A stretch of 64,000 nt of DNA from an uncultured Gammaproteobacteria bacterium (lineage in GTDB: Bacteria > Patescibacteriota > Microgenomatia > Levybacterales > GWA1-39-11). Positions 7,227 through 59,790 of the stretch are shown piece by piece. The notes under the pieces were generated by a model, which saw only the letters and a program-made list of their open reading frames with translations, had not been told where the DNA came from and searched no databases. Where the stretch lies: assembly GCA_964425075.1 (NCBI GenBank), contig CAYRKM010000001.1:266484-330483 (forward strand). Direction: 5' to 3'. A program made the translations under genes and the position numbers. Numbering within the stretch: position 1 is the first letter of the stretch; the number at the start of each line of letters is the position of its first letter.

Positions 7227-8990
7227 ATGGATGATGTAGAAAAGGTAAAAGCAAAACTCAATTTAGTTGATGTAATTGAAGGCTATATCCCTCTGAAGCG
7301 AGCTGGAAGAAATTTTAAAACCCCTTGTCCCTTTCACAATGAAAAAAGCCCTTCATTTGTGGTTTCTCCTGAAAGGCAAATTTGGCATTGTTTTGGATGC
7401 GCAAAAGGTGGAGACATGTTTACATTTGTTGAAGAATACGAAAGAGTGGACTTCTCTGAAGCTCTTAAAATTTTAGCGGATAAAGCTGGAATAACGCTTA
7501 CCAAAACTGTTTTTAAAACCAAGAGAGATGAGAAAAAGAATAGGATTTATGAAATAAATCACCTTACAGCTCAATTCTATCACTACCTTTTAACAGAGCA
7601 TAAATCCGGAAAAGAAGCACTTTCTTATGTAATTGAAAAGAGAGGATTAACAAAAGCTCTCCTTTCAACTTATATGCTGGGATTTGCTCCTCTTCAAAGA
7701 GACGCGCTATCTCAATATCTTATAAAGAAAAAGCACTATTCAAAAGAAGAACTTGTTGAGGCAGGTGTTTCTTTTTTTAGAAACGGGAGGGTGTTTGATT
7801 TCTTCATAAACCGGCTTATTTTCCCAATTCTTGATAGTAGGGGCAATATCATCGCCTTTTCAGGACGCGCCTTAACTGACAATGTAATGCCTAAATACAT
7901 AAACACAAAAGAAACCCCGGTATACGTAAAGGGAGACACTGTATTTGGAATATATCAGGCAAAAGAAGAGATCAAAAAGGAGGGTAAAGTAATTGTTGTT
8001 GAAGGTGAATTTGATGTTATTACTAGCTTTAAGGAAGGAATTGTAAATGTTGTTGCAGTCAAAGGAACAGCTTTAACTGAAAATCAAATTCGACTTTTGA
8101 AGCGCTTTTCCCAAAAAATAGTTTTTTGTTTTGACACAGACCCTGCAGGAACTGAAGCGCAGCGTAGATCAATTGCATTAATTGCAAAAGAGGGAATTTC
8201 TGCCTCAGTTGTACTTCCTCCACAGGGAAAAGATCCTGACGAATTATTAAGAGACAATCCTGGCCTTTTTAAAAAAGCTTTAAAAGAGGAGATAAATATC
8301 TATGATTTTATCCTGGAGTCATCCATTCAAAAAATTGATCCAAAGTCAGTAGACGGTAAAAAAGCTATCCTCTTAAGAACTTTGCCGTATTTATATGATA
8401 TTGAGAATGAAATTGTAAAAGAGCATTACCTAAAGAAACTTGCCTCACTTTTAGATTCATCCCTTGAGTCGGTTGTAAAGGAAGCTGAGAAACTCAAATC
8501 CCCTCCACCGGCACCCCAGCCAGAAAAACTAAAGATTGAGAAAAAACCACGACAATATATGATTGAAGAATATTTGTTAACACTTATTGTACAAAGCGCT
8601 AATCCAAAAGAAGCAACTATTCTTACAGCAGGAATTATTAATGGCGTAAAACTACAAACTCCTATTTTTAACCAACTATTTGAATTTTTGCGTGAATATT
8701 TCAAAACCCAGGACAAGCTAGTTTTGGAAGAGGTCAGTCAAGTGCTTCCAAAAGATCTTACGAGTGTTTTTGACCTATGTTTACTTACCCCAATTCCACA
8801 ATTTGCAACAGAAGAATTATTTACTCACCAACTTGGAAAAACGGCAAATGAGGTAAAACACATATCTATTAAGGCAAAATTGTCAGCAATCTCAAATTCC
8901 ATAAAAACTGCTGAAAAAGAAGGAAATGAGGAAAGCATAGAAGAGCTTCAAAAGGAATTTGATATGCTTGCCTCTCACTATAAGAGCTAA
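7227..8990 (+). CDS. dnaG: DNA primase
   Basis: CHC2 zinc finger CPFHNEKSPSFVVSPERQIWHCFGCAKGGD, TOPRIM region (VVEGEFDV), followed by rpoD as in the classical operon. Confidence 0.9.
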   Translation: MDDVEKVKAKLNLVDVIEGYIPLKRAGRNFKTPCPFHNEKSPSFVVSPERQIWHCFGCAKGGDMFTFVEEYERVDFSEALKILADKAGITLTKTVFKTKRDEKKNRIYEINHLTAQFYHYLLTEHKSGKEALSYVIEKRGLTKALLSTYMLGFAPLQRDALSQYLIKKKHYSKEELVEAGVSFFRNGRVFDFFINRLIFPILDSRGNIIAFSGRALTDNVMPKYINTKETPVYVKGDTVFGIYQAKEEIKKEGKVIVVEGEFDVITSFKEGIVNVVAVKGTALTENQIRLLKRFSQKIVFCFDTDPAGTEAQRRSIALIAKEGISASVVLPPQGKDPDELLRDNPGLFKKALKEEINIYDFILESSIQKIDPKSVDGKKAILLRTLPYLYDIENEIVKEHYLKKLASLLDSSLESVVKEAEKLKSPPPAPQPEKLKIEKKPRQYMIEEYLLTLIVQSANPKEATILTAGIINGVKLQTPIFNQLFEFLREYFKTQDKLVLEEVSQVLPKDLTSVFDLCLLTPIPQFATEELFTHQLGKTANEVKHISIKAKLSAISNSIKTAEKEGNEESIEELQKEFDMLASHYKS

Positions 8991-10323: not shown

Positions 10324-11064
10324 ATGGGTTATTTCGGGAAAATTGAACTTAAAAATGAAGCTATCGCACTCCACCAAAAAGGCCTTTCCTATAACGAAAT
10401 TCTGAAAACAATTCCTGTTTCCAAAGACACATTAAGTCGGTGGTGCAGAGAAATTGAACTAACAAATGATCAAAAAGCAAGATTAATGACAAATAAAGAG
10501 AACGGCCAGAGAAAGGGCTCGCTTGTAGCAGCTGGTAATAAAAGGAGACAAAGAATAGAAAAAATTAAGAACATAAATATCTTGGCTAGAAAGGACATAG
10601 GTAAAATTTCAAAGAGAGATAATTTCATTTTTGGCCTAGCTCTTTATGCCGGAGAGGGAGGCAAAACCGATGGAAAAGGTACCTTCACCAACTCGAATCC
10701 CTTTTTTATTAAATTTATGTGTAAATGGTTAATGGAATATTGTGATTTAAATGCTAATAATCTAAAGGGGGCACTATGGATTCATGAAGAAAACGATGAA
10801 AAAGAAGCAAAAATATTTTGGTCAAATTTAACTGAAATTCCTATTATAAATTTCCATAAATCATACGTCGTTAAAAACAAAAATGGAGTTTATTATCGGA
10901 AAAATGTTCATCCATTTGGAGTTTTTTCTATACGATTTTACAATAGTGATTTACAAAGGAAAATAATGGGCTGGATTTCAGCTTTCTTAGATGATAAAAT
11001 AACTTCCACTCAAGAAATTGAGTCGATCCGCGATAGCTCAATGGTAGAGCAGGAAACTGTATAA
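10324..11064 (+). CDS. Hypothetical protein with N-terminal HTH and a single degenerate LAGLIDADG-like motif (possible free-standing homing-endonuclease relative)
   Basis: HTH-like LSYNEILKTIPVSKDTLSRWCRE. Motif FIFGLALYAGEGG resembles LAGLIDADG with a terminal acidic residue. Family assignment by eye only. Confidence 0.3.
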   Translation: MGYFGKIELKNEAIALHQKGLSYNEILKTIPVSKDTLSRWCREIELTNDQKARLMTNKENGQRKGSLVAAGNKRRQRIEKIKNINILARKDIGKISKRDNFIFGLALYAGEGGKTDGKGTFTNSNPFFIKFMCKWLMEYCDLNANNLKGALWIHEENDEKEAKIFWSNLTEIPIINFHKSYVVKNKNGVYYRKNVHPFGVFSIRFYNSDLQRKIMGWISAFLDDKITSTQEIESIRDSSMVEQETV

Positions 11065-11204
11065 CAATGCAGCCTCCGAGGGAAACATCGGAGTGAATAA
11101 CTGGGCTAATTCGGGGAAACCCTGAGACAATTGAAGGGCAATCCCGAGCTAAATTCCGCCAAATGGCGAGATAAATGTGTAGAGACTATATACCCAGGAC
11201 CTAA

Positions 11205-11305
11205 TTCGCCAAGATGGTGAAATGGTCATAAGATAGTCCAAGCCTTTTAGTAATAAAAGGGTCCTTGTAATTTCAAGGTTCTAGGTTCGAATCCTAGTCG
11301 CGGAG
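11205..11305 (+). tRNA. tRNA-like element with canonical T-arm and 3' acceptor strand. Full cloverleaf not resolved (possible intron-containing, aberrant or remnant tRNA)
   Basis: CTAGG-TTCGAAT-CCTAG T-arm at 11281-11297, followed by 7-nt acceptor strand TCGCGGA plus discriminator G. Upstream TTCGCCA pairs 6/7. A D-arm-like ATGG-TGAAATGG-TCAT with a GG pair is present. Total length about 101 nt is too long for a standard tRNA and the anticodon arm is non-canonical. Confidence 0.35.
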
Positions 11306-11345: not shown

Positions 11346-12092
11346 ATGAAAAAGCTGATTCCCGTTATAGTAATTTTGCTGATTATTCTTGTAGCAGGCT
11401 TTCTTTTCGTAAGTAACTCCTTTTCACCCCTAACTCCTGAGTCGAAACAAGTGAATAGAGACATAGTTAATGCCTCTTTTTCAAATCCTACTAAAAGTGC
11501 TCATTATGAAAGCAATACCCCCGAACACGGCTCAACCCTAGCGGGTGTACCAATAAATGTAGTTATAAATTTTAATTTTGACCTGGCCGCACCATCTGAA
11601 ATCAAAATTGAAAAAGACGGAGAAGAATATGGAAGTGGCAATACAGAAATTGATGAGAATAAATTGTCTATGAGAAGAGGGATGAGAAGTGATTCCCCTA
11701 ATGGAATTTATACTGTGAATTACAAGGCGTGCTGGCCAGACGGCAGTTGCCATGACGGAAGTTTTCAGTTTGCAATAGACAGAACACGAGAATCTTCATA
11801 CGAAGATCTGACTGGACAAAAGGAAATTACAATCGAAATGAGTGAAATACAGTTTAAATCTATGAATTTGAAAATCAGCAAAGGTACTAAAGTAACTTGG
11901 ACCAATAATGATGATGTTGAACATTATGTTAATACGGATTCTCACCCAGCACACACATACTTCCCTGTACAAAACTCTAAAGCACTAAAGACTGGGGACA
12001 CTTATTCTGCTATATTCACCGATGTGGGAATTTACCCCTATCACTGCTCGGCTCATGCGGACTCCATGATTGGCTCAATACTAGTACAGTAA
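11346..12092 (+). CDS. Membrane-anchored copper-binding protein: CopC-like domain fused to a cupredoxin (type 1 Cu) domain
   Basis: N-terminal TM. Middle region has CopC-like beta pattern. C-terminal ...YHCSAHADSMIG (Cys-x2-His-x3-Met) with upstream His typical of the cupredoxin ligand set. Confidence 0.5.
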   Translation: MKKLIPVIVILLIILVAGFLFVSNSFSPLTPESKQVNRDIVNASFSNPTKSAHYESNTPEHGSTLAGVPINVVINFNFDLAAPSEIKIEKDGEEYGSGNTEIDENKLSMRRGMRSDSPNGIYTVNYKACWPDGSCHDGSFQFAIDRTRESSYEDLTGQKEITIEMSEIQFKSMNLKISKGTKVTWTNNDDVEHYVNTDSHPAHTYFPVQNSKALKTGDTYSAIFTDVGIYPYHCSAHADSMIGSILVQ

Positions 12093-52778: not shown

Positions 52779-53228
52779 ATGCATTGTCCATATTGTAAAC
52801 ACAACAATACTGAAGTAGTTGAAACCCGCGTTAGTGAGGATGGGAATAATATTCGAAGGAGAAGGCTTTGTGGTAATTGTTCAAAGAGATTTACTACTTA
52901 CGAAAGGGTTGAAAACCTTACCCTCTTGGTAATGAAGAAAGATGGAAGAAGCGAGAGATTCAGTAGAGAAAAACTTAAGGGTGGAATTCTAAAGGCAGTT
53001 GAGAAAACCACCGTAACCCTCGAGCAGATTGAGAGAATAGTTGATGATATAGAGCGCGAATTATTGGGTTCTGATAGCGTAGAGGTGGAAAGCAAAAAAA
53101 TTGGGAGACTTGTTGCTTCCAATTTAAAAAGACTTGATAAGATAGCATATATTAGATTTGCAAGCGTATTTAAAAACTTCGTAGACATAGAAGAGTTTGA
53201 AAAGGAAGTGAAAAAGTTAATAAGATAA
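52779..53228 (+). CDS. nrdR: Transcriptional repressor NrdR
   Basis: MHCPYCKHNNTEVVETR...CGNC zinc ribbon plus ATP-cone; 149 aa. Confidence 0.9.
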   Translation: MHCPYCKHNNTEVVETRVSEDGNNIRRRRLCGNCSKRFTTYERVENLTLLVMKKDGRSERFSREKLKGGILKAVEKTTVTLEQIERIVDDIERELLGSDSVEVESKKIGRLVASNLKRLDKIAYIRFASVFKNFVDIEEFEKEVKKLIR

Positions 53229-53439: not shown

Positions 53440-55851
53440 ATGACATTAACTGGAATTAGAGAAAAAGTTTTTATAGACCGTTATTCATTGAAAGATGCGG
53501 ATGGTACTCCTCTTGAAACAGAACCCCAACAGATGTGGAGAAGGGTAGCTAAGGGAATAGCTGGACAAGAAGTAAAAGCCAAACGTGAAGAATGGGAGGA
53601 AAAATTTTATAAAGTTTTAGAAGACTTCAAATTTGTTCCTGGGGGAAGAATTCTCTCAGGGGCCGGAACAGGATATCAAGTAACTTACTTTAATTGCTTT
53701 GTAATCCCATCGCCCAAGGATTCTAGAGAGGGAATTCTCGATAGTCTTAAACAACTCGTCGAGATTCAAAGTCGCTCTGGGGGTGTGGGACTAAATCTGT
53801 CCTCCCTTCGCCCCCGCGGGGCACGTGTTAAAAAAGTAAATGGTACTTCTTCAGGTCCCGTAACCTGGGCAGGGCTTTTTTCATACGCAACCCATGACGT
53901 TGTACAGCAGGGTGGAACCAGAAGAGGGGCAACAATGCTTATGCTTTGGGATTGGCATCCTGATATAGAGGAGTTCATTACTGTAAAAGAGGACCTTTCC
54001 AAAATAAATGGCGCAAATCTATCAGTAAATGTTTCAGATGCTTTTATGAGCGCTGTTAAAAATGATTCTGATTGGGAATTGGTTTATCCAGATCTTGACG
54101 ATCCTAAATATGATGAATTTTGGGATGGAGATATTGTGGGCTGGAAGGCAATGGGGGGAGCCGTAAAAGTATACAAAACAGTAAAGGCTCGTTATCTTTG
54201 GGATCTTATTTGTACAGCTGCTTGGAAAAGTGCTGAGCCAGGACTTCACTTTTTGGAGAGAAGCAACAAACAATCAAACACTTGGTATTTCGAAAAGCTT
54301 ATTGCAACCAACCCCTGTGGAGAGCAGCCTCTTGGTGGATGGGCAGTATGTAATCTTGGAGCAATGAATTTGTCTCAATATGTTAAGGATGAGAAATTTG
54401 ATTATGATAGCTTTTCAGATGACGTAAAAGTTGCAATGAGACTTTTAGATAACGTCATTGATGATACGTATTATTTCTTTAAAGAAAACGAAAAGTGCGC
54501 AAAAGAAATACGAAGAACTGGACTTGGAATAATGGGTTTGGCAGATGCGCTTATAAAAATGAAACTCCGTTACGGATCTGAGGAAGCAATGCCAACGATT
54601 GAGAAAATCTTTCAAGTATTAAGAGATAGTGCGTATGATGCGTCTTCTGATATTGCAAAAGAAAAAGGTTCATTTCCTAAATTTGATAAAGAAAAATATC
54701 TTCAGGGACATCATATAAAAGCGCTTCCCAAAAAACTTCGAGATAAAATAGCTGCGCAGGGCATTAGAAATGCAGTACTTCTTACAATTGCTCCAACCGG
54801 AACAACATCATTATTGTCAGGTGTTTCTTCAGGAGTAGAGCCAGTTTATGAATTTACTTTTGTGAGACGAGATAGAACAGGAGAGCACATAATGTACCAT
54901 CCCCTATATGAGGAGTGGAAAGAGCAGAATCCAGATGCGGAAAAACCTAATTATTTTGTAAGTGCAAATGACTTGACCCCGCTAGAGCACGTAAGCGTTC
55001 AGGCTGTAGCTCAGAGATATATTGATTCATCTATTTCAAAAACAGTTAATGCTCCAAATGCGCATACTATTGATGATGTGAAAACCCTCTATATGTTAGC
55101 TTACGAAATGGGGCTGAAGGGAATAACCTACATGAGAGATGGCTCTCGTGAAGGAGTTTTATCAAGGATTGAGGATAAGAAAAAAGAAGAAGAGGTAGAG
55201 AGGGCAGCTCGAGAAATGCCAATAAGAAAACGCCCAGTCGTGCTTCACGGGGTAACTCACAAGACTGTAACACCTTTGGGGCACACATTTATAACGATTA
55301 ATAACGATGAAGAAGAAAAACCATTTGAGATATTTATAAATGCTGGAAAATCGGGTAGTGATGTTATGGCAATGGCTGAGGCATTAGGAAGGATTATGTC
55401 TATGGTTTTGCGTATCCAGTCACCAGTTGAGCCGCGAGAAAGAGTGCGGGATATGATAGATCAACTTTCAGGAATTGGTGGAGGTCGCTCGGTTGGATTT
55501 GGACCAAATAGGGTGCGCTCACTTCCTGATGCTGTTGCAAAGGTTTTGGCAGAGCATTTTGCTTTTAGAGTAAATGGACATGTTGCGGATAAAAAAATTG
55601 AGGCAACTCTTGCAGATGGAGGGAAAAAGGAATCTTTGGAAGTCGTAGCGCAGGAAGCAAAGCCAGTTGAAGCAGCTAAAGAGGTATTTGTAGCAGAGGA
55701 ACCAAGCGAGCCATCTCTTCCGATGGTAGCGGTTTTGCAAGCTCCAAAAAGTGCAGCTAATGCTGATCTTTGTCCCGAATGTGGATCTGCTTCATTCGTT
55801 CACGAAGAAGGATGTGCTAAGTGCTATGCTTGCGGACATGCCGAATGTTAA
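53440..55851 (+). CDS. nrdJ: Class II (adenosylcobalamin-dependent) ribonucleoside-triphosphate/diphosphate reductase
   Basis: Active-site NPCGEQPL, TGTTS, C-terminal zinc ribbon CPECGS...CAKCYACGH; 803 aa; downstream of nrdR. Confidence 0.85.
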   Translation: MTLTGIREKVFIDRYSLKDADGTPLETEPQQMWRRVAKGIAGQEVKAKREEWEEKFYKVLEDFKFVPGGRILSGAGTGYQVTYFNCFVIPSPKDSREGILDSLKQLVEIQSRSGGVGLNLSSLRPRGARVKKVNGTSSGPVTWAGLFSYATHDVVQQGGTRRGATMLMLWDWHPDIEEFITVKEDLSKINGANLSVNVSDAFMSAVKNDSDWELVYPDLDDPKYDEFWDGDIVGWKAMGGAVKVYKTVKARYLWDLICTAAWKSAEPGLHFLERSNKQSNTWYFEKLIATNPCGEQPLGGWAVCNLGAMNLSQYVKDEKFDYDSFSDDVKVAMRLLDNVIDDTYYFFKENEKCAKEIRRTGLGIMGLADALIKMKLRYGSEEAMPTIEKIFQVLRDSAYDASSDIAKEKGSFPKFDKEKYLQGHHIKALPKKLRDKIAAQGIRNAVLLTIAPTGTTSLLSGVSSGVEPVYEFTFVRRDRTGEHIMYHPLYEEWKEQNPDAEKPNYFVSANDLTPLEHVSVQAVAQRYIDSSISKTVNAPNAHTIDDVKTLYMLAYEMGLKGITYMRDGSREGVLSRIEDKKKEEEVERAAREMPIRKRPVVLHGVTHKTVTPLGHTFITINNDEEEKPFEIFINAGKSGSDVMAMAEALGRIMSMVLRIQSPVEPRERVRDMIDQLSGIGGGRSVGFGPNRVRSLPDAVAKVLAEHFAFRVNGHVADKKIEATLADGGKKESLEVVAQEAKPVEAAKEVFVAEEPSEPSLPMVAVLQAPKSAANADLCPECGSASFVHEEGCAKCYACGHAEC

Positions 55852-55874
55852 CTGCAAGCTGCTTTTAAATTAAA

Positions 55875-56017
55875 AATTAATTGGAAATCATGGTGAAAGT
55901 CCATGGCTGTGCCGCAACTGTAAACTCACCCTTTCGGGTGTAAAGCCAGAAAACAAGTAATTCCCGAGCAGGAAAAAAGATTGCCCATTTTGACCTCCTC
56001 GGAAAAGGAGGTTTTTT
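55875..56017 (+). promoter_or_regulatory. Cobalamin riboswitch 1 with SD-sequestering terminator-like hairpin, upstream of pduO-type adenosyltransferase
   Basis: GGTGAAAGTCC...GCTGTGCCGCAACTGTAA core; AAGCCAG B12-box remnant. Expression platform CTCCTcggaaAAGGAGGTTTTTTT immediately before ATG 56019. Confidence 0.7.
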
Positions 56018-56018
56018 T

Positions 56019-56573
56019 ATGGCAATATATACAAAAAAAGGAGATAAGGGAAAAACCGCATTGGGAAGCGGGGTCAGGGTGTATAAAGATACCCCGAGAG
56101 TGGATACATATGGCACAATTGATGAGCTAAACGCGTCTTTGGGGATAATCAATGCTCAGCTTTCTTTAGTTCATAAAAAATACGCGCCTTATCTTTCCAG
56201 AATTACACTTCTTATTCAAGACGATTTATTTTCAATTGGTGCATATCTTTCAAATCCTGCAAACCGTGAATTAGTAAAAAACCTATCATCAAGAACAGTT
56301 GAGTTTGAGAAGTATATCGACGAGATGACTGAGAAAATGCCTGAAATTACCAATTTTACTGTTCCCGGTGGGACAATTGTTGCTTCGCACCTTCATTTGT
56401 CCCGTACTATTTGTAGAAGAGCTGAGCGCAAACTCGTAACATTGATGAAAAAAGAGAAAGTAAATGAGGATGTGGTGAAGTATATAAATAGACTATCTGA
56501 CCTTTTATTTACCATGAATAGATTTTCAAACTTTAGTGAAAAAGTAAAAGAAGTTATTTGGAAAAGACGATAG
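56019..56573 (+). CDS. pduO: ATP:cob(I)alamin adenosyltransferase, PduO/MMAB type
   Basis: MAIYTKKGDKGKTALGSGVRV...DTYGTIDELNASLG N-terminal signature; 184 aa. Confidence 0.8.
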   Translation: MAIYTKKGDKGKTALGSGVRVYKDTPRVDTYGTIDELNASLGIINAQLSLVHKKYAPYLSRITLLIQDDLFSIGAYLSNPANRELVKNLSSRTVEFEKYIDEMTEKMPEITNFTVPGGTIVASHLHLSRTICRRAERKLVTLMKKEKVNEDVVKYINRLSDLLFTMNRFSNFSEKVKEVIWKRR

Positions 56574-56577
56574 ATAG

Positions 56578-56716
56578 ATTTACGGGTGAAGTCGGGTGGA
56601 ATTCCCGCGCTGTGCCGCAACTGTGAATCCGCCGATGAGGCGGAAAGCCAGGCCCCCAAGAGACTTTTCGAGCCCCGCACCGTTGTGGTACAGGGTCATG
56701 CATCATATGGTGCATG
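56578..56716 (+). promoter_or_regulatory. Cobalamin riboswitch 2, upstream of the 457-aa unknown protein. Start codon embedded in CATGCA/TGCATG hairpin
   Basis: GGGTGAAGTCGGGTGGAATTCCCGCGCTGTGCCGCAACTGTGAA core and GAAAGCCAGGCCCCC B12 box; GC-rich structured region. Confidence 0.75.
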
Positions 56717-58087
56717 GCAAGAAGCATTTTCTATGACCTTCTCGAAAAGCGAGAAGGTTTTTTTTGGACCAAAAAGTATATGGAAAGATTTCAAAGATCA
56801 GCATTAGTAGAGCAGGTGCCTCCAGCAGTGGATTGTGCGTATATTCAGGGTGAAATTTCTCAGGCGCGGGACAGATTGTTGTCTCAATGGCAAAATAATG
56901 GACGACAAGTGCGTTCATTTGAACCAGAATTTGATAGGGTTTGCTATGTTACATTAGGACGATTTAAGGATAGTAATCCAGAGGCCTATTTTGAGGCAAA
57001 AAAACAGCTTGATAGCATTACCGAAACCAATCTTAAAACAACAGTTGGAGAAAGGCTAAACGCTTCACTAAGTCAGTGGGAATATGACATTAAAGAGGAT
57101 GGGATATATGCACAGGGGACAACGGAGAAAGCTATAGAAATGTATAGGAGAGGCAGAAATTTTAGGCGTATTCATGGAAAAGGGGTTGATTTTGCGCGTG
57201 AAGAGGCAGAGCTTGATGGTTTTTCATCAATTGATGATGAATTTATAGATGGGACACAAGTACCCGAGGGGACTATGTGGATTTCTTTCTCTCCCCGAGG
57301 AGACGTTCAGGGTGGGTCAATTTACTCACATAATTTCTATGATATATTGACGGTTAAAAAAAGAGACGGGAAACATTATATTGAGTCAAGAAGGTATGCA
57401 AGTGCGCTTACTCCAGAGGAAAGTATAAAAAAAATTACTCAATTAGATCCTGAGCAATTTGAGGATGCTCAGCCTACAGCTGAATACCTCTTAGCTAACC
57501 CCATCAAATTAAGTGCTCAAAACGGTATGTTTGAAAATGCAGACGAGTTGCATTCATATCTTCATAAAAATATTGATAAAGTCATCACAGCGGATCAATT
57601 TGAATTTGTGCTTCAAAGGATAAAGCCCGCAATTAGCGAGTATTTAAAGGGATTGAATGATAATCCCAATGATTCATTGGGGCAGCTTGAGAAACTTCGT
57701 GGTGTACTAAACTCAGCTGATGCAACAGTTGATATGTTGGCAGGTAAAAGTGGGGGAGGTATGGTTGTTGAGGAGATGAGGCCACTTACTGCTTATGAAC
57801 TTGTAGCATATCGACAGTCAGAGGTAAAACCGGTTCAGGCTGGATGTGGATTTTCTGGGGATTATGGAGGGGGCATACTTGATTCATCTCAAAGCGTCTT
57901 TAGTGTTGCAGAATTTGGAGCAGACCAAAAAAAAGCAGAAGATGATCCTAATTTATGTAAATGTGGTGGAGAAAGGCCTCATTTTCATTGTCCGGGAAAA
58001 ATAGAGGACGAGGAATGCAATCGGAAGATAATTGTAGGTCAAGGAATAAAATCCTGTCCTAGCTGTGGAGAAGGAAAACGTTGTTAA
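56714..58087 (+). CDS. Hypothetical cytoplasmic protein with C-terminal Cys-rich zinc-ribbon-like tail, under cobalamin riboswitch control
   Basis: 457-aa ORF; C-terminal CKCGGERPHFHCPG...CPSCGEGKRC; no corrinoid-binding DxHxxG motif seen. Confidence 0.5.
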   Translation: MARSIFYDLLEKREGFFWTKKYMERFQRSALVEQVPPAVDCAYIQGEISQARDRLLSQWQNNGRQVRSFEPEFDRVCYVTLGRFKDSNPEAYFEAKKQLDSITETNLKTTVGERLNASLSQWEYDIKEDGIYAQGTTEKAIEMYRRGRNFRRIHGKGVDFAREEAELDGFSSIDDEFIDGTQVPEGTMWISFSPRGDVQGGSIYSHNFYDILTVKKRDGKHYIESRRYASALTPEESIKKITQLDPEQFEDAQPTAEYLLANPIKLSAQNGMFENADELHSYLHKNIDKVITADQFEFVLQRIKPAISEYLKGLNDNPNDSLGQLEKLRGVLNSADATVDMLAGKSGGGMVVEEMRPLTAYELVAYRQSEVKPVQAGCGFSGDYGGGILDSSQSVFSVAEFGADQKKAEDDPNLCKCGGERPHFHCPGKIEDEECNRKIIVGQGIKSCPSCGEGKRC

Positions 58088-58224: not shown

Positions 58225-58944
58225 TTGATTTCTAGATATAATATATTAGTGTTTGATTTCATAGCCTCTATTTTCTATCCAAAATCATGCGTGGGATGTA
58301 GGAAGCCTGGAAGCTATATTTGCCCTGACTGTTTTGCTAAAATTTCCTTTTTAGAATATCAATATTGTGCTGTTTGTCAAAAAGGTACCATCAACGGCTT
58401 AACTCATCCTCGATGCCTTACTCCTTATTCAATTGATGGAATAATTGCGAGTATCTCTTATAAAGGAATCGTTAAAAAACTTCTTTATCAGTTCAAATAC
58501 CGTCCATATCTATATGACCTGAAATCTCCCTTGGGGAGACTTATGTATGAAGGTCTTATTCAAAACGAAACATTTATGAATTTTGCACGTAAAAAAGATG
58601 TATTTATAACTCCAATTCCGCTTCATGCTAGACGAGAAAAGAAGAGAGGCTATAACCAGTCTAAATTATTGGCTCAGGAGTTATCAAAAAGAACAGGGAT
58701 TTTACATATTGATGAGATTTTGAGTAGAAAGATTTATACAAAACCTCAATTCCAACTTACAAAGGAGGAGAGAAAAAATAATTTAAAAAATGCCTTCAAG
58801 GTAAATAAAGATGTGAAGGGAAAAAATATATTACTAGTTGATGATATTACAACAAGTGGAGCCACCATGCGTGAATGTGGCAAAATTTTAAAGAGAAGTG
58901 GGGCAAAAAAAGTGCTTGGAATTGCCCTCGCGCACGAAGGATAA
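58225..58944 (+). CDS. comFC: ComF-family protein (double zinc ribbon plus phosphoribosyltransferase domain), TTG start
   Basis: N-terminal CVGCRKPGSYICPDC...CAVC. PRTase motif ILLVDDITTSGATMRE. Confidence 0.75.
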   Translation: MISRYNILVFDFIASIFYPKSCVGCRKPGSYICPDCFAKISFLEYQYCAVCQKGTINGLTHPRCLTPYSIDGIIASISYKGIVKKLLYQFKYRPYLYDLKSPLGRLMYEGLIQNETFMNFARKKDVFITPIPLHARREKKRGYNQSKLLAQELSKRTGILHIDEILSRKIYTKPQFQLTKEERKNNLKNAFKVNKDVKGKNILLVDDITTSGATMRECGKILKRSGAKKVLGIALAHEG

Positions 58945-58950
58945 AATTTG

Positions 58951-59309
58951 TGGAGATGGGGGGTTTTGAGCCCCCGTCCAAAAATCATCCATAAAAACAT
59001 CTACAAGCGTAGTTCCCTCTAATTCTTGCCATATCTAACCGTTGGAACAAAGAAAATATGACAAAGGCCTAATACGAAACGGGCTGGCCAGCTCCGTTAA
59101 GTTTTTCTAGCAGGTTAATGCCTGTATCTTTGTGCTAGAAGCAAGTTGATACAAACAGGTCTTAGGTATTAAGCAAACGCAAAGTTTGGTTTAAAACCAA
59201 GTCCGCTAAATTGTGATTTAGCATGTATTTTTGAACCTCTTTTACGACTTTGGTTCATTGTCGGCTTGCAGTTTTTAAGGTACAATTCTTGTCGATGCAG
59301 TGCATCCCC
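58951..59309 (-). ncRNA. ssrA: tmRNA (SsrA), standard one-piece form
   Basis: Minus-strand 5' GGGGATGCACTGCATCGACAAG... 3' ...GGACGGGGGCTCAAAACCCCCCATCTCCA. Acceptor stem carries the G3:U70 wobble (AlaRS identity) and discriminator A. T-arm GGGGG/CCCCC. Putative tag ORF GCT AAA TCA ... GCG TTT GCT TAA (AKSQFSGLGFKPNFAFA). Adjacent to smpB. Confidence 0.75.
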
Positions 59310-59349
59310 AAGACAAGTATTATAGCAAATAGGCCTATAGAAATCAAGT

Positions 59350-59790
59350 TTAGATAAGGTTTTTTAGCTCTTTTTCTCGGTCGCGTTCAATCGCCTGCTG
59401 TTTTAAATCCTTACGTCTTTCGAATTCTCTTTTACCGCGGGCAAGCCCAATTTCAAGCTTAAAATGTCCGTTTTTAAGGTATAAGGAGAGTGGAGCGAGA
59501 GTAAATTTTCCGGTATCAAGCTTGTTTTTGAGAGTTAATAGCTCTTTTTTATGAAGTAAAAGCTTGCGGGTTCTGTCTTCCTGATAGCCTTCCTTGCGGG
59601 AATATTGGTAGGGAAATATTTTGGAATTTATCAAATAAGCTTCACCACTCATTAATTTTACATACGAGCCCGAAAGATCAACATGGCCAAGCCGGATGGC
59701 TTTAACCTCAGAGCCCAAAAGCTGAATGCCGGCTTCATATTTCTCATCAATTTTAAATCTATTTGGCGCAGTTTTGTTATAAATTTTCAT
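59350..59790 (-). CDS. smpB: SsrA-binding protein
   Basis: 146 aa; conserved GxEVKAIRLG region and basic C-terminal tail. Confidence 0.85.
   Translation of the reverse strand: MKIYNKTAPNRFKIDEKYEAGIQLLGSEVKAIRLGHVDLSGSYVKLMSGEAYLINSKIFPYQYSRKEGYQEDRTRKLLLHKKELLTLKNKLDTGKFTLAPLSLYLKNGHFKLEIGLARGKREFERRKDLKQQAIERDREKELKNLI

Follow-up and report, generated by a model that had tools for sequence, protein, structure and literature searches.

Predicted cobalamin riboswitches in series and a candidate corrinoid-handling protein of an orphan family downstream of nrdJ in a Patescibacteria genome

The stretch of Patescibacteria (CPR) DNA analyzed here, 64,000 nucleotides long and hereafter called the window, contains a locus that is best explained as a B12-responsive supply module joined to the nrdR-nrdJ operon. 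Moderate confidence is placed in this explanation as a whole, including the role of the last gene, termed X, whose product would most likely work with the adenosyltransferase PduO in making AdoCbl available to the ribonucleotide reductase NrdJ. Patescibacteria, which have tiny genomes, are thought to be unable to make B12, and the loci under study encode a B12-dependent ribonucleotide reductase (RNR) for DNA precursors. The module bears on the import, processing and activation of scavenged corrinoids in these organisms.

Organization of the locus

The genes and switches all lie on the + strand in the order nrdR, nrdJ, riboswitch A, pduO, riboswitch B and X. The first gene, nrdR (52779..53228), was recognized by the Pfam models Zn_ribbon_NrdR (1.7e-20) and ATP-cone (3e-17) and keeps the same position in most related loci. 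It is followed by nrdJ (53440..55851), which encodes a class II (B12-dependent) ribonucleotide reductase according to its Pfam matches (Ribonuc_red_lgC, 1e-123, Ribonuc_red_lgN and TSCPD); the TSCPD domain is accompanied by a Cys-rich tail. Only 15 nt separate the nrdJ stop codon from riboswitch A, beyond which lies a gene for a PduO-type ATP:cob(I)alamin adenosyltransferase (56019..56573; Cob_adeno_trans, PF01923, 1.9e-53), a member of this family with 181.5 bits for a gathering cut-off of 24. The orphan protein X, of 435 aa, is encoded at 56780..58087, a start corrected with the help of the identical database protein P0001.

This organization was compared with 88 related loci from tiny-genome Patescibacteria, 82 of which include upstream sequence and 73 of which were used for pduO adjacency. 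A cobalamin riboswitch was found upstream of X by nhmmer in 73 of the 82 loci, and the covariance model R1, described below, recovered all but L059 and L061, raising the number to about 80. In 53/73 loci pduO stands immediately upstream of X, the two ORFs often overlapping or lying 2 nt apart, with one riboswitch before pduO. This synteny is missing in about a quarter of the loci, where the stand-alone X genes retain their own riboswitch and have uninformative neighbors, namely genes for large proteins that are secreted or membrane-bound, and small ORFs resembling toxins. Besides, the switch-controlled unit includes genes with DUF4430 (7e-16) and DUF6580 (2.8e-51) domains in L008, L011, L024, L035, L076, L078, L081 and L084. 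These transcobalamin-like (DUF4430) and ECF-S-like (DUF6580) proteins are putative B12-uptake proteins.

Class and subtype of the riboswitches

Riboswitch B, directly upstream of X, was originally described as a well-conserved cobalamin riboswitch core, to be scanned with RF00174. The core strings quoted in that prediction are indeed present at 56595-56657 and belong to a real switch, which was detected with 42.0 bits (E 2.7e-9) by R1, a covariance model derived from 43 homologous sequences with the window left out. The assignment to RF00174 did not hold, since the scan gave 26.3 bits over 56541-56675, below the gathering threshold of 31.5 bits at which nothing was reported. Moreover, fitting RF00174 pushed P1 into the pduO coding sequence and left 11 nt in place of 62 positions of the model's P6 extension. 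Membership of RF00174 was rejected because of the sub-threshold score, the position of the model P1 and the lack of a Cbl-I P6 extension.

The aptamer of riboswitch B (56578..56660) was delineated from these scores and from covariation in alignment A4 (45 sequences). Its P3 pairs GGG (56584-86) with CCC (around 56654-56), and P4 (56593-56607), P5/L5 (56611-56619, L5 being UGCCG) and P6 (56621-23 with 56649-51) complete the junction. In A4, compensatory changes were found in 5/5 pairs of P4, 2/2 of P5, 4/4 of P13 and 5/7 of P3, and in one of the three P6 pairs, the remaining two being invariant. Paired cells amounted to 85.8%, against 33-42% when partners were slid, and the observed score was reached by 0/500 shuffles. 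Covariation thus backs a P3-P4-P5-P6 four-way junction devoid of a P7-P11 extension, as in class II. From this comparative sequence evidence, the RNA of the window is assigned to a genuine cobalamin riboswitch of class II (RF01689-like), not of the Cbl-I/RF00174 type.

The RF01689 match of riboswitch B was lower than its RF00174 match. A 19-nt hairpin, GAATCCGCCGATGAGGCGG, is inserted in its P6 loop (56625..56643) and is missing in the closest relative, L089, according to pairwise alignment. Homologous elements without a P6 insert, five of which immediately precede X homologs, obtained 37.0-55.2 bits with RF01689, whose gathering threshold is 36.5 bits. Since insert-free relatives reach the gathering score, the P6 hairpin inserts account for the sub-threshold scores of both window aptamers. 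Riboswitch A (55867..55978), which comprises a class II aptamer (P3-P6 with a short hairpin on P6) and P13, scored 35.2 bits with RF01689 (E 6.6e-7), slightly below the threshold, and 79.2 bits with R1 (E 1.9e-19). Its P13 hairpin reads UUCC-CGAGCA-GGAA (55961-55974). This switch in front of pduO was absent from the original prediction and scores better than riboswitch B.

All Cbl classes have an L5-L13 kissing loop in common (PMC7367189, PMC6158498). In the present family, L5 GCCG is complementary to the invariant P13 loop CGAGCA through four G-C pairs with a bulged A and is pairable in 96% of A4. As both loops are invariant, covariation speaks neither for nor against the contact, and the kissing loop of the window switches is regarded as a candidate suggested by complementarity.

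In Cbl-IIb riboswitches, J1/3 is paired or has a short mismatch, and P6 bears a short hairpin (PMC7367189). In both window switches P3 is continuous, J1/3 is not bulged and P6 has a short hairpin, whereas L037 and L044, two relatives preceding stand-alone X genes, possess P1 and a bulged J1/3 and are IIa-like. The resemblance in secondary structure suggests that A and B are of the Cbl-IIb type, which would imply AdoCbl as ligand and product feedback on the adenosyltransferase, bearing in mind the published caution that the selectivity of cobalamin riboswitches is a spectrum (PMC7367189). Two gene-specific subtypes, "X-type" and "supply-type", could be told apart by J3/4 and J6/3. Switches with X-type junctions lie directly upstream of X in 25/25 cases, and riboswitch B is of this type (GGGUGAAG / CAG-GCCCCC), riboswitch A being of the supply-type. 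Two riboswitches in series were found in 14/73 loci.

Expression platform

In riboswitch B, the expression platform combines a conserved L13-type hairpin with a terminator and an antiterminator, and start-codon sequestration is not its mechanism. Terminators A and B were each called independently by the terminator scan. In front of pduO, terminator/sequestrator A is formed by GACCTCCTCGGAAAAGGAGGTT followed by a T-run (55992..56018). Its 3' arm holds the Shine-Dalgarno sequence (SD) GGAGG, with ATG 56019 immediately behind it, and RNAfold showed an alternative pairing of terminator A with the P13 5' arm. In front of X, intrinsic terminator B (GACCTTCTCG-AAAAG-CGAGAAGGTT followed by T8, 56735..56765) contains 10 pairs in the scan and was also found with RNAfold. 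The 5' arm of P13, CUUUU, together with the L13 core CGAGC, lies at 56664..56673, a conserved hairpin with a covarying stem, and the 3' arm AGAAG at 56720..56724 pairs with CUUUU (56664-68) and is collinear with L089, in which P13 is uninterrupted (CTTTT-CGAGCA-AGAAG). The 5' strand of antiterminator B, CUUUUCGAG (56664-56672), overlaps the P13 5' arm and loop, and its partner strand, CUCGAAAAG (56741-49), corresponds to the 5' arm and loop of the terminator. A GC-rich hairpin with a U-run thus precedes the start codon and is mutually exclusive with an antiterminator, as in an intrinsic-terminator platform. In truncated transcripts, before the terminator 3' arm exists, the antiterminator was the minimum free energy (MFE) fold in 5/5 cases (RNAfold). 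Besides, antiterminator complementarity of at least 7 nt was found in 31 of 60 family elements, compared to 10% in shuffles.

Each switch consists of three parts, i.e., a class II aptamer, a P13 with the invariant CGAGCA loop and an intrinsic terminator just 5' of the start codon. When a corrinoid is bound, the L5-L13 contact would keep P13 closed, the terminator would form and transcription would end ahead of pduO or X; terminator formation would also hide the SD in most relatives. When the ligand is lacking, the P13 5' arm and loop CUUUUCGAG would instead pair with the terminator 5' arm CUCGAAAAG, and this antiterminator would allow pduO and X to be expressed.

An insertion in riboswitch B and the start of X

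Compared with L089, riboswitch B carries a clean 45-nt lineage-specific insertion inside L13 (56674..56718, with a 2-nt ambiguity that allows 56672-56716 as an alternative placement). Independent folding of the insertion is predicted, and no second copy pointing to a repeat or a mobile element was found within the 64-kb window. Both the ATG at 56714 and the CATGCA/TGCATG stem (56697-56716) fall within this insertion, which L089 does not have. The original prediction had assigned X to the ORF 56714..58087 (457 aa) and proposed that the stem sequesters its start codon. The ORF and the stem do exist, but the reading built on them does not stand. The start codon at 56714 was rejected because it is inside an insertion missing from L089, because intrinsic terminator B sits within the alleged 5' coding extension and because P0001 has 435 aa. 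The length of P0001 places the start of X at ATG 56780, so that X comprises 435 rather than 457 aa. Sequestration by the CATGCA stem was likewise rejected, the stem and the ATG lying in the lineage-specific insertion; as ATG 56714 is not the true start, the stem does not sequester the start codon. The N-termini of the X family are not conserved, and the SD ahead of ATG 56780 is weak.

The insertion may have weakened or abolished the ligand control of switch B in this window. A decaying or re-wired switch B is rather unlikely as an explanation: the L13 insertion would block the ligand-dependent kissing loop, leaving X under the control of switch A, by read-through from pduO, and of a terminator or antiterminator that is now constitutive. 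Several features agree with this. The invariant loop is split by the insertion (CGAGC|A), P13 of B could not be aligned by R1, the SD has disappeared from the terminator 3' arm (GAGAAGG in place of GAGGAG) and the ATG has shifted to 14 nt downstream of the T-run. However, the aptamer, the P13 arms, the antiterminator and the terminator are otherwise intact, with about 95% identity to the insert-free L089. The insert also forms a separate hairpin that leaves CGAGC single-stranded in the predicted folds, and the relatives L058 and L016 tolerate similar GC-rich hairpins in peripheral loops. The decay of switch B would concern regulation only and would fit any function of X.

The X protein family

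X belongs to an orphan family and is a soluble protein of the cytoplasm. As originally proposed, it contains no transmembrane segment (maximum KD19 0.57) and no recognizable corrinoid-binding motif. The DxHxxG motif was absent and the canonical B12-binding domain (PF02310) gave no Pfam match. A Walker A/P-loop motif was not present either. Searches with X against Pfam, NCBIfam and PDB sequences returned no match, and its predicted fold had no match in the PDB. The AF2 model (pLDDT 84.9, pTM 0.73) shows a central beta-sheet domain with flanking helices. The solved B12-handling proteins (CblC/MMACHC, CblD, PduS-like, BtuF and transcobalamin) share no sequence or fold likeness with X.

The family comprises 546 cluster representatives, with a single architecture in all of the 150 listed, and longer members displayed no informative domain fusions. 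Among 135 representatives, E91, C356, C404, C413, C426 and C429 are invariant, and the terminal C435 is near-invariant; many of the invariant residues are charged (E91, R92, R140, E141, E144, D188 and R205). The C-terminal Cys cluster noted in the original prediction is thus confirmed, and its four conserved cysteines (C404, C413, C426 and C429), arranged in two knuckles, correspond to a Cys4 zinc ribbon for which metal binding is predicted. Pfam matches to Zn_ribbon models were weak, being obtained with 5/39 family members (best E 0.01). A homology between the tails of X and NrdJ was rejected (BLASTP E 0.083 over 8 residues).

All named sources of the family are Patescibacteria, and any name given is "hypothetical protein"; a profile search for distant relatives in an annotated set of 5.8 billion proteins returned only such Patescibacteria entries. 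Literature searches turned up no account of the X family, nor of any Cbl riboswitch from CPR bacteria.

Role of X

Comparative genomics best supports a role of X in corrinoid salvage, processing or chaperoning, which had been among the functions originally proposed. The arguments are the riboswitch in about 80 of 82 loci, the adjacency to pduO in 53 of 73 and the company of the DUF4430 and DUF6580 genes. X could receive the imported corrinoid, remove or reduce its upper ligand, or escort it to or from PduO, the candidate functional groups being the invariant Cys356, the terminal Cys435 and the Cys4 zinc ribbon. No homology links X to corrinoid chemistry, and X has no known B12-binding motif. 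A precedent for Cys-ligated B12 processing is provided by BtuM (PMC6072759). As a more specific and tentative proposal, slightly on the doubtful side, X may be the founder of a new class of proteins that handle cobalamin in the cytoplasm and whose fold is missing from the PDB, with X as a CPR-specific functional analogue of CblC/CblD. Cys356, with or without Cys435, and the zinc ribbon would then bind, de-ligate or reduce the imported corrinoid before its transfer to PduO, and the riboswitch subtype specific to X may sense another form of corrinoid than the supply-type.

Classical targets of repression by cobalamin riboswitches are B12-independent isozymes, such as metE or nrdAB/nrdDG. X could accordingly be a B12-independent backup or B12-sparing activity outside B12 supply, induced at B12 scarcity when NrdJ is stalled, for instance an alternative deoxynucleotide route. 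Its probable OFF-regulation by B12, its position in an RNR operon and the quarter or so of X genes that are found apart from pduO, each behind a riboswitch of its own, would suit such an activity. Yet X directly follows pduO in most loci, often with overlapping or nearly overlapping ORFs behind a single switch, and putative B12-uptake genes share the switch-controlled unit in some of them. This co-transcription with pduO and uptake genes renders a backup activity less likely. In addition, X has no P-loop and bears no likeness to RNR, kinase or nucleotide-metabolism folds. Overall, a backup function is improbable.

Slightly more improbable still is that X acts as a sensor or regulator directing the response to low B12, with a PAS-like core for ligand binding and the zinc ribbon for binding nucleic acids or proteins. 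The matches behind such a core were all sub-significant and covered fewer than 120 residues, X has no HTH or other output domain, and its many invariant charged residues together with Cys356 are more suggestive of a site for catalysis or ligand binding.

Under the favored corrinoid-handling reading, X is a candidate, open to testing, for a step that is missing in B12 trafficking. This widespread orphan has a confidently predicted fold and is consistently associated with nothing but a B12 riboswitch and an adenosyltransferase. The analysis defines a compact riboswitch-gated module of DUF4430, DUF6580, PduO and X, and both DUF families gain names and context. On the RNA side, the Cbl-II riboswitches gain a well-populated clade that has gene-specific subtypes, is used in tandem in a single operon and bears natural P6 and L13 insertions, features with which the influence of peripheral elements on selectivity and switching can be examined.

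Comparison with known systems

MMACHC (CblC), MMADHC (CblD) and BtuM with its Cys-dependent decyanase activity would be analogous to X in function only, the common point being a step between import and adenosylation in which the upper ligand is removed or reduced. As in BtuM, an invariant Cys is the candidate cobalt ligand of X (PMC6072759). In contrast, these proteins have no likeness to X in sequence or fold, and X differs by its Cys4 zinc ribbon and its predicted architecture. The zinc-finger tail of class II RNR, as in the neighboring NrdJ, is also C-terminal, Cys-rich, probably Zn-binding and terminated by a Cys, but its Cys spacing differs and the two tails are not homologous.

At the level of gene organization, the module resembles the B12 uptake and salvage operons (btuB, btuFCD, ECF-CbrT and BtuM, with pduO/cobA), which also group acquisition and activation genes under OFF-regulation by corrinoids. 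Here, DUF4430 and DUF6580 would stand in for the uptake genes, the module is placed as an internal attenuator behind nrdJ, with two riboswitches in series in some of the loci, and the orphan X belongs to no described B12 regulon.

The riboswitches share with other class II members (RF01689 "AdoCbl-II"; the Cbl-IIa env8 HyCbl riboswitch, PDB 4FRN; and the Cbl-IIb E. faecalis eut riboswitch) the P3-P6 four-way junction, the T-loop-like L4 (GUGNAAnUCC), the GCCGCAACUG core, a P6 that is short and lacks a P7-P11 extension and, further downstream, a hairpin with a loop that could kiss L5. Whereas L13 is the RBS in env8, P13 would act here as an anti-antiterminator ahead of a separate terminator, the SD being carried on the 3' arm of the latter. 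The present elements further differ from known class II riboswitches by the gene-specific subtypes of J3/4 and J6/3, and copy B by its 45-nt L13 insertion.

Two cobalamin riboswitches in the nrdR-nrdJ-pduO-X operon

In the window, nrdR (52779-53228) and nrdJ (53440-55851) are followed by switch A (aptamer 55867-55978), pduO (56019-56573), switch B (56578-56765) and the orphan gene X (56780-58087, forward strand). Switch B had been described as a cobalamin riboswitch, to be checked with RF00174, in the original prediction, whose quoted core strings were indeed found at 56595-56657. Under a permissive local scan, the element reached 26.3 bits (local E 6e-5) against a gathering score of 31.5, and it thus fails RF00174 by the refutation criterion that the prediction had set for itself, a score with this model. 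The RF00174 alignment had to place P1 within pduO coding sequence, and for the P6 extension it had only 11 nt to set against 62 model positions. This failure is a question of class, not of reality. A regular expression for the core also matched at 55892-55950, in the nrdJ-pduO gap; the corresponding switch A scored 35.2 bits with RF01689 (AdoCbl-II), for a gathering score of 36.5. In 13 related loci searched against Rfam at its curated thresholds, 10 elements passed RF01689 at 37.0-55.2 bits, 5 of them directly upstream of X homologs. These elements are devoid of a hairpin insertion in the P6 loop whereas both window copies carry one, which explains the marginal Rfam scores of switches A and B. 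The covariance model R1, built on alignment A5 of 43 related elements with the window excluded, gave 79.2 bits (E 1.9e-19) for switch A and 42.0 bits (E 2.7e-9) for switch B, and detected no other copy in the 64-kb window. The two elements are very probably class-II cobalamin riboswitches with a P13/antiterminator/terminator platform, arranged in series within the operon. Switch A, which spans 55867-56018 between nrdJ and pduO when its own terminator is included, was not mentioned in the original prediction and outscores switch B.

At gathering thresholds, the Rfam scan of the whole window left just two hits, a tmRNA and a group I intron. The tmRNA (123 bits; tag peptide AKSQFSGLGFKPNFAFA) adjoins smpB on the minus strand (58948-59790), just downstream of a ComF-like double-zinc-ribbon phosphoribosyltransferase (58225-58944). 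An unannotated ORF (10324-11064) has its 3' end within the intron match (RF00028, 63.3 bits, 11050-11260), and this match lies 5' of a CopC/cupredoxin gene (11346-12092). The search for a host tRNA or rRNA was negative, and a similar match is present in the related locus L004 (10506-10704).

RNA fold and expression platform

The fold was assessed on alignment A4 (45 sequences), in which P3, P4, P5, P6, the downstream hairpin P13 and the L5-L13 pseudoknot were specified. Paired cells represented 85.8%, vs 33-42% when 3' partners were slid by 1 to 3 columns, and the covariation score was 0.433 vs 0.151 after shuffling, a value reached by 0/500 shuffles. Compensatory changes were observed in 5/7 pairs of P3, 5/5 of P4, 4/4 of P13 and 2/2 of P5 (U-A to A-U in 12 sequences, G-C to C-G in 2), and in one of the three pairs of P6, the other two being invariant. 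The L5 (GCCG) and L13 (CG-A-GC) loops are both invariant; hence, their kissing interaction, which is sequence-compatible, is beyond the reach of covariation.

Across the family, the platform consists of the P13 hairpin (e.g., CUUC-CGAGCA-GAAG), a spacer, a terminator, a U7 run and the AUG. In this terminator, the 5' arm (CUCGGAAG-like) complements the 5' arm and loop of P13, and the 3' arm carries the Shine-Dalgarno sequence (GAGGAG). Contiguous complementarity of at least 7 nt was found in 31/60 elements, vs 10% in shuffled controls. With RNAfold, the antiterminator was the minimum free energy fold of all five transcripts ending before the terminator 3' arm, and P13 plus terminator that of the full-length transcripts of switch A, switch B and L089, the locus of the closest relative. 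A terminator scan independently called hairpin-plus-T-run sites at 55992-56013 and 56735-56759. Because nrdJ stops only 15 nt before aptamer A and the gap (55851-55867) yielded no promoter-like site, switch A is probably an internal attenuator within the nrdR-nrdJ-pduO-X transcript, uncoupling pduO-X from nrdJ.

Insertions in switch B and the start of X

L089, whose X protein is 67% identical, shares the pduO-switch-X arrangement and has an intact hairpin (CTTTT-CGAGCA-AGAAG). Pairwise alignment with this locus revealed exactly two clean indels in the window, i.e., a 19-nt hairpin in the P6 loop (56625-56643) and a 45-nt insertion in L13 (56674-56718) of switch B. The latter contains both the ATG at 56714, from which a 457-aa protein had been predicted, and the CATGCA/TGCATG stem (56697-56716) proposed to sequester this start codon; neither the start nor the sequestration is retained. 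Terminator B also falls within the 5' coding extension, the N-termini of X homologs are not conserved and P0001, an identical database entry, has 435 aa. X is therefore placed at 56780-58087 (435 aa). The L13 insertion may impair switch B, but this is less likely than not.

Three separate lineages have GC-rich hairpins of the type CCCGCACCG-loop-GGTGC(GGG) inserted in these riboswitches, within or beside a peripheral loop: the window in L13 (56674-56718), L058 in J1/3 (7619-7636) and L016 immediately 5' of the aptamer (600-616). Only four distinct occurrences were counted in 0.93 Mb.

Conservation of the module in Patescibacteria

X homologs were gathered by a word-indexed search (41) and from 72 metagenomic loci, 15 species-representative genome loci and 2 contigs of closest relatives; all named source organisms are Patescibacteria (Levyibacteriota, Roizmanbacteria, "Patescibacteria group"). 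With an nhmmer profile from seven seeds, nearly every locus proved to have this RNA ahead of X, on the coding strand. Of the 82 loci with at least 300 nt upstream of X, 73 have the RNA by nhmmer. R1 rescued L042, L065, L055/56, L039, L060 and L062/73, missed by nhmmer, and in L059 and L061 no element was detectable by either method. The window order nrdR-nrdJ-switch-pduO-switch-X recurs across related loci. pduO immediately precedes X in 53/73 loci. In 23 loci the only switch is the one before pduO, in 14 it is the one between pduO and X, and in 14 others, as in the window, both positions are occupied; 13 stand-alone X genes retain their own switch. In L011 (6664-7751), two extra genes, encoding an unknown protein (139 aa) and a diphthamide-synthase-like ATP-binding protein (PF01902, 2.3e-52), separate pduO from the X-type riboswitch.

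At least 8 distinct loci have DUF4430 and DUF6580, then pduO and X, behind the first switch. DUF4430 (PF14478, 7e-16) combines an N-terminal transmembrane anchor with a transcobalamin-like domain, and DUF6580 (PF20221, 2.8e-51) is a multi-pass membrane protein with weak ECF-S similarity. This pair, found in L008 (6258-7288), L011 (5095-6061), L024 (6405-7323), L035 (2367-3330), L076, L078, L081, L084 and L087, likely serves these Patescibacteria for B12 uptake; none was found in the 64-kb window.

In the window (55867-55978 vs 56578-56660) and among 60 elements in L002-L088, two riboswitch subtypes are split by downstream gene. The subtype GGGUGAAG...CAG-A(U/G)CCCC stands solely directly upstream of X (25/25). 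The subtype AGGUAAUC...CAG-AAAAC precedes pduO (17), DUF4430 (5) or, less often, X (5), and the X genes behind it are mostly stand-alone, with P1 plus a J1/3 bulge. Since the junctions lining the ligand pocket differ, the two subtypes may prefer different corrinoid forms.

Protein X

X had no match in Pfam, NCBIfam, PADLOC or PHROGs, nor among PDB sequences by single sequence or profile. An exhaustive profile search yielded 546 cluster representatives, of which 297 had E ≤ 1e-30; the 150 matches listed are all single-stretch and of comparable size, entries are called "hypothetical protein" wherever sources give a name, and the longer members scanned carry no known fused domain. As originally predicted, X has neither a transmembrane segment nor a corrinoid-binding motif (DxHxxG); no P-loop was found in it either. 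In 135 representatives, E91, C356, C404, C413, C426 and C429 are invariant, and D52, T87, R92, G125, R140, E141, A143, E144, S171, Y182, F186, D188, R205, L238, P241, Y288, G357 and C435 nearly so. This conservation indicates a zinc ribbon of the Cys4 type, one further invariant cysteine located in a TGCG loop and a charged-residue cluster typical of a ligand or catalytic site. Homology of the X tail to the Cys-rich tail of NrdJ was rejected on comparison.

A distant branch (P0040/41; loci L083-L088) has the C-terminal module in common with X and is riboswitch-controlled too. Its proteins (P0040, P0041, P0187-P0190) are about 500 aa long, keep a TGCG-like Cys motif and carry the C-terminal module as ...NLCRC..PHFHCPG..CPxCGEGKKC. 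In L083-L088, the gene of this branch follows directly on a cobalamin riboswitch, and pduO and nrdJ lie 0.5-2.5 kb upstream.

The consistent signals for the role of X are solely its B12-riboswitch control and its adjacency to pduO and uptake genes. On these grounds, X may help to supply NrdJ with AdoCbl, e.g., by processing, reducing or escorting imported corrinoid, a reading to which we give close to even confidence. That X is instead a B12-sparing backup activity appears improbable, and that it is a PAS-like/Zn-ribbon regulator slightly more so.

Comparison with known systems

The operon logic of this module is already known, and the window riboswitches belong to a known class, with natural insertions that are unusual and subtypes specific to the downstream gene. 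An L5-L13 kissing loop has been described for every class of cobalamin riboswitch (PMC7367189; PMC6158498). By the absence of a bulged J1/3 and the short hairpin on P6, the window switches structurally resemble the AdoCbl-binding Cbl-IIb riboswitches and fit their published description (PMC7367189, Fig. 1 legend), a resemblance that would make AdoCbl the candidate ligand. X forms an undescribed family for which no relatives were detectable, and its link with the B12 regulon, in these Patescibacteria loci, is new. For the proposed supply of AdoCbl by X, the cysteine chemistry of BtuM on cobalamin (PMC6072759), together with that of CblC/CblD, offers a functional precedent and not evidence of homology.
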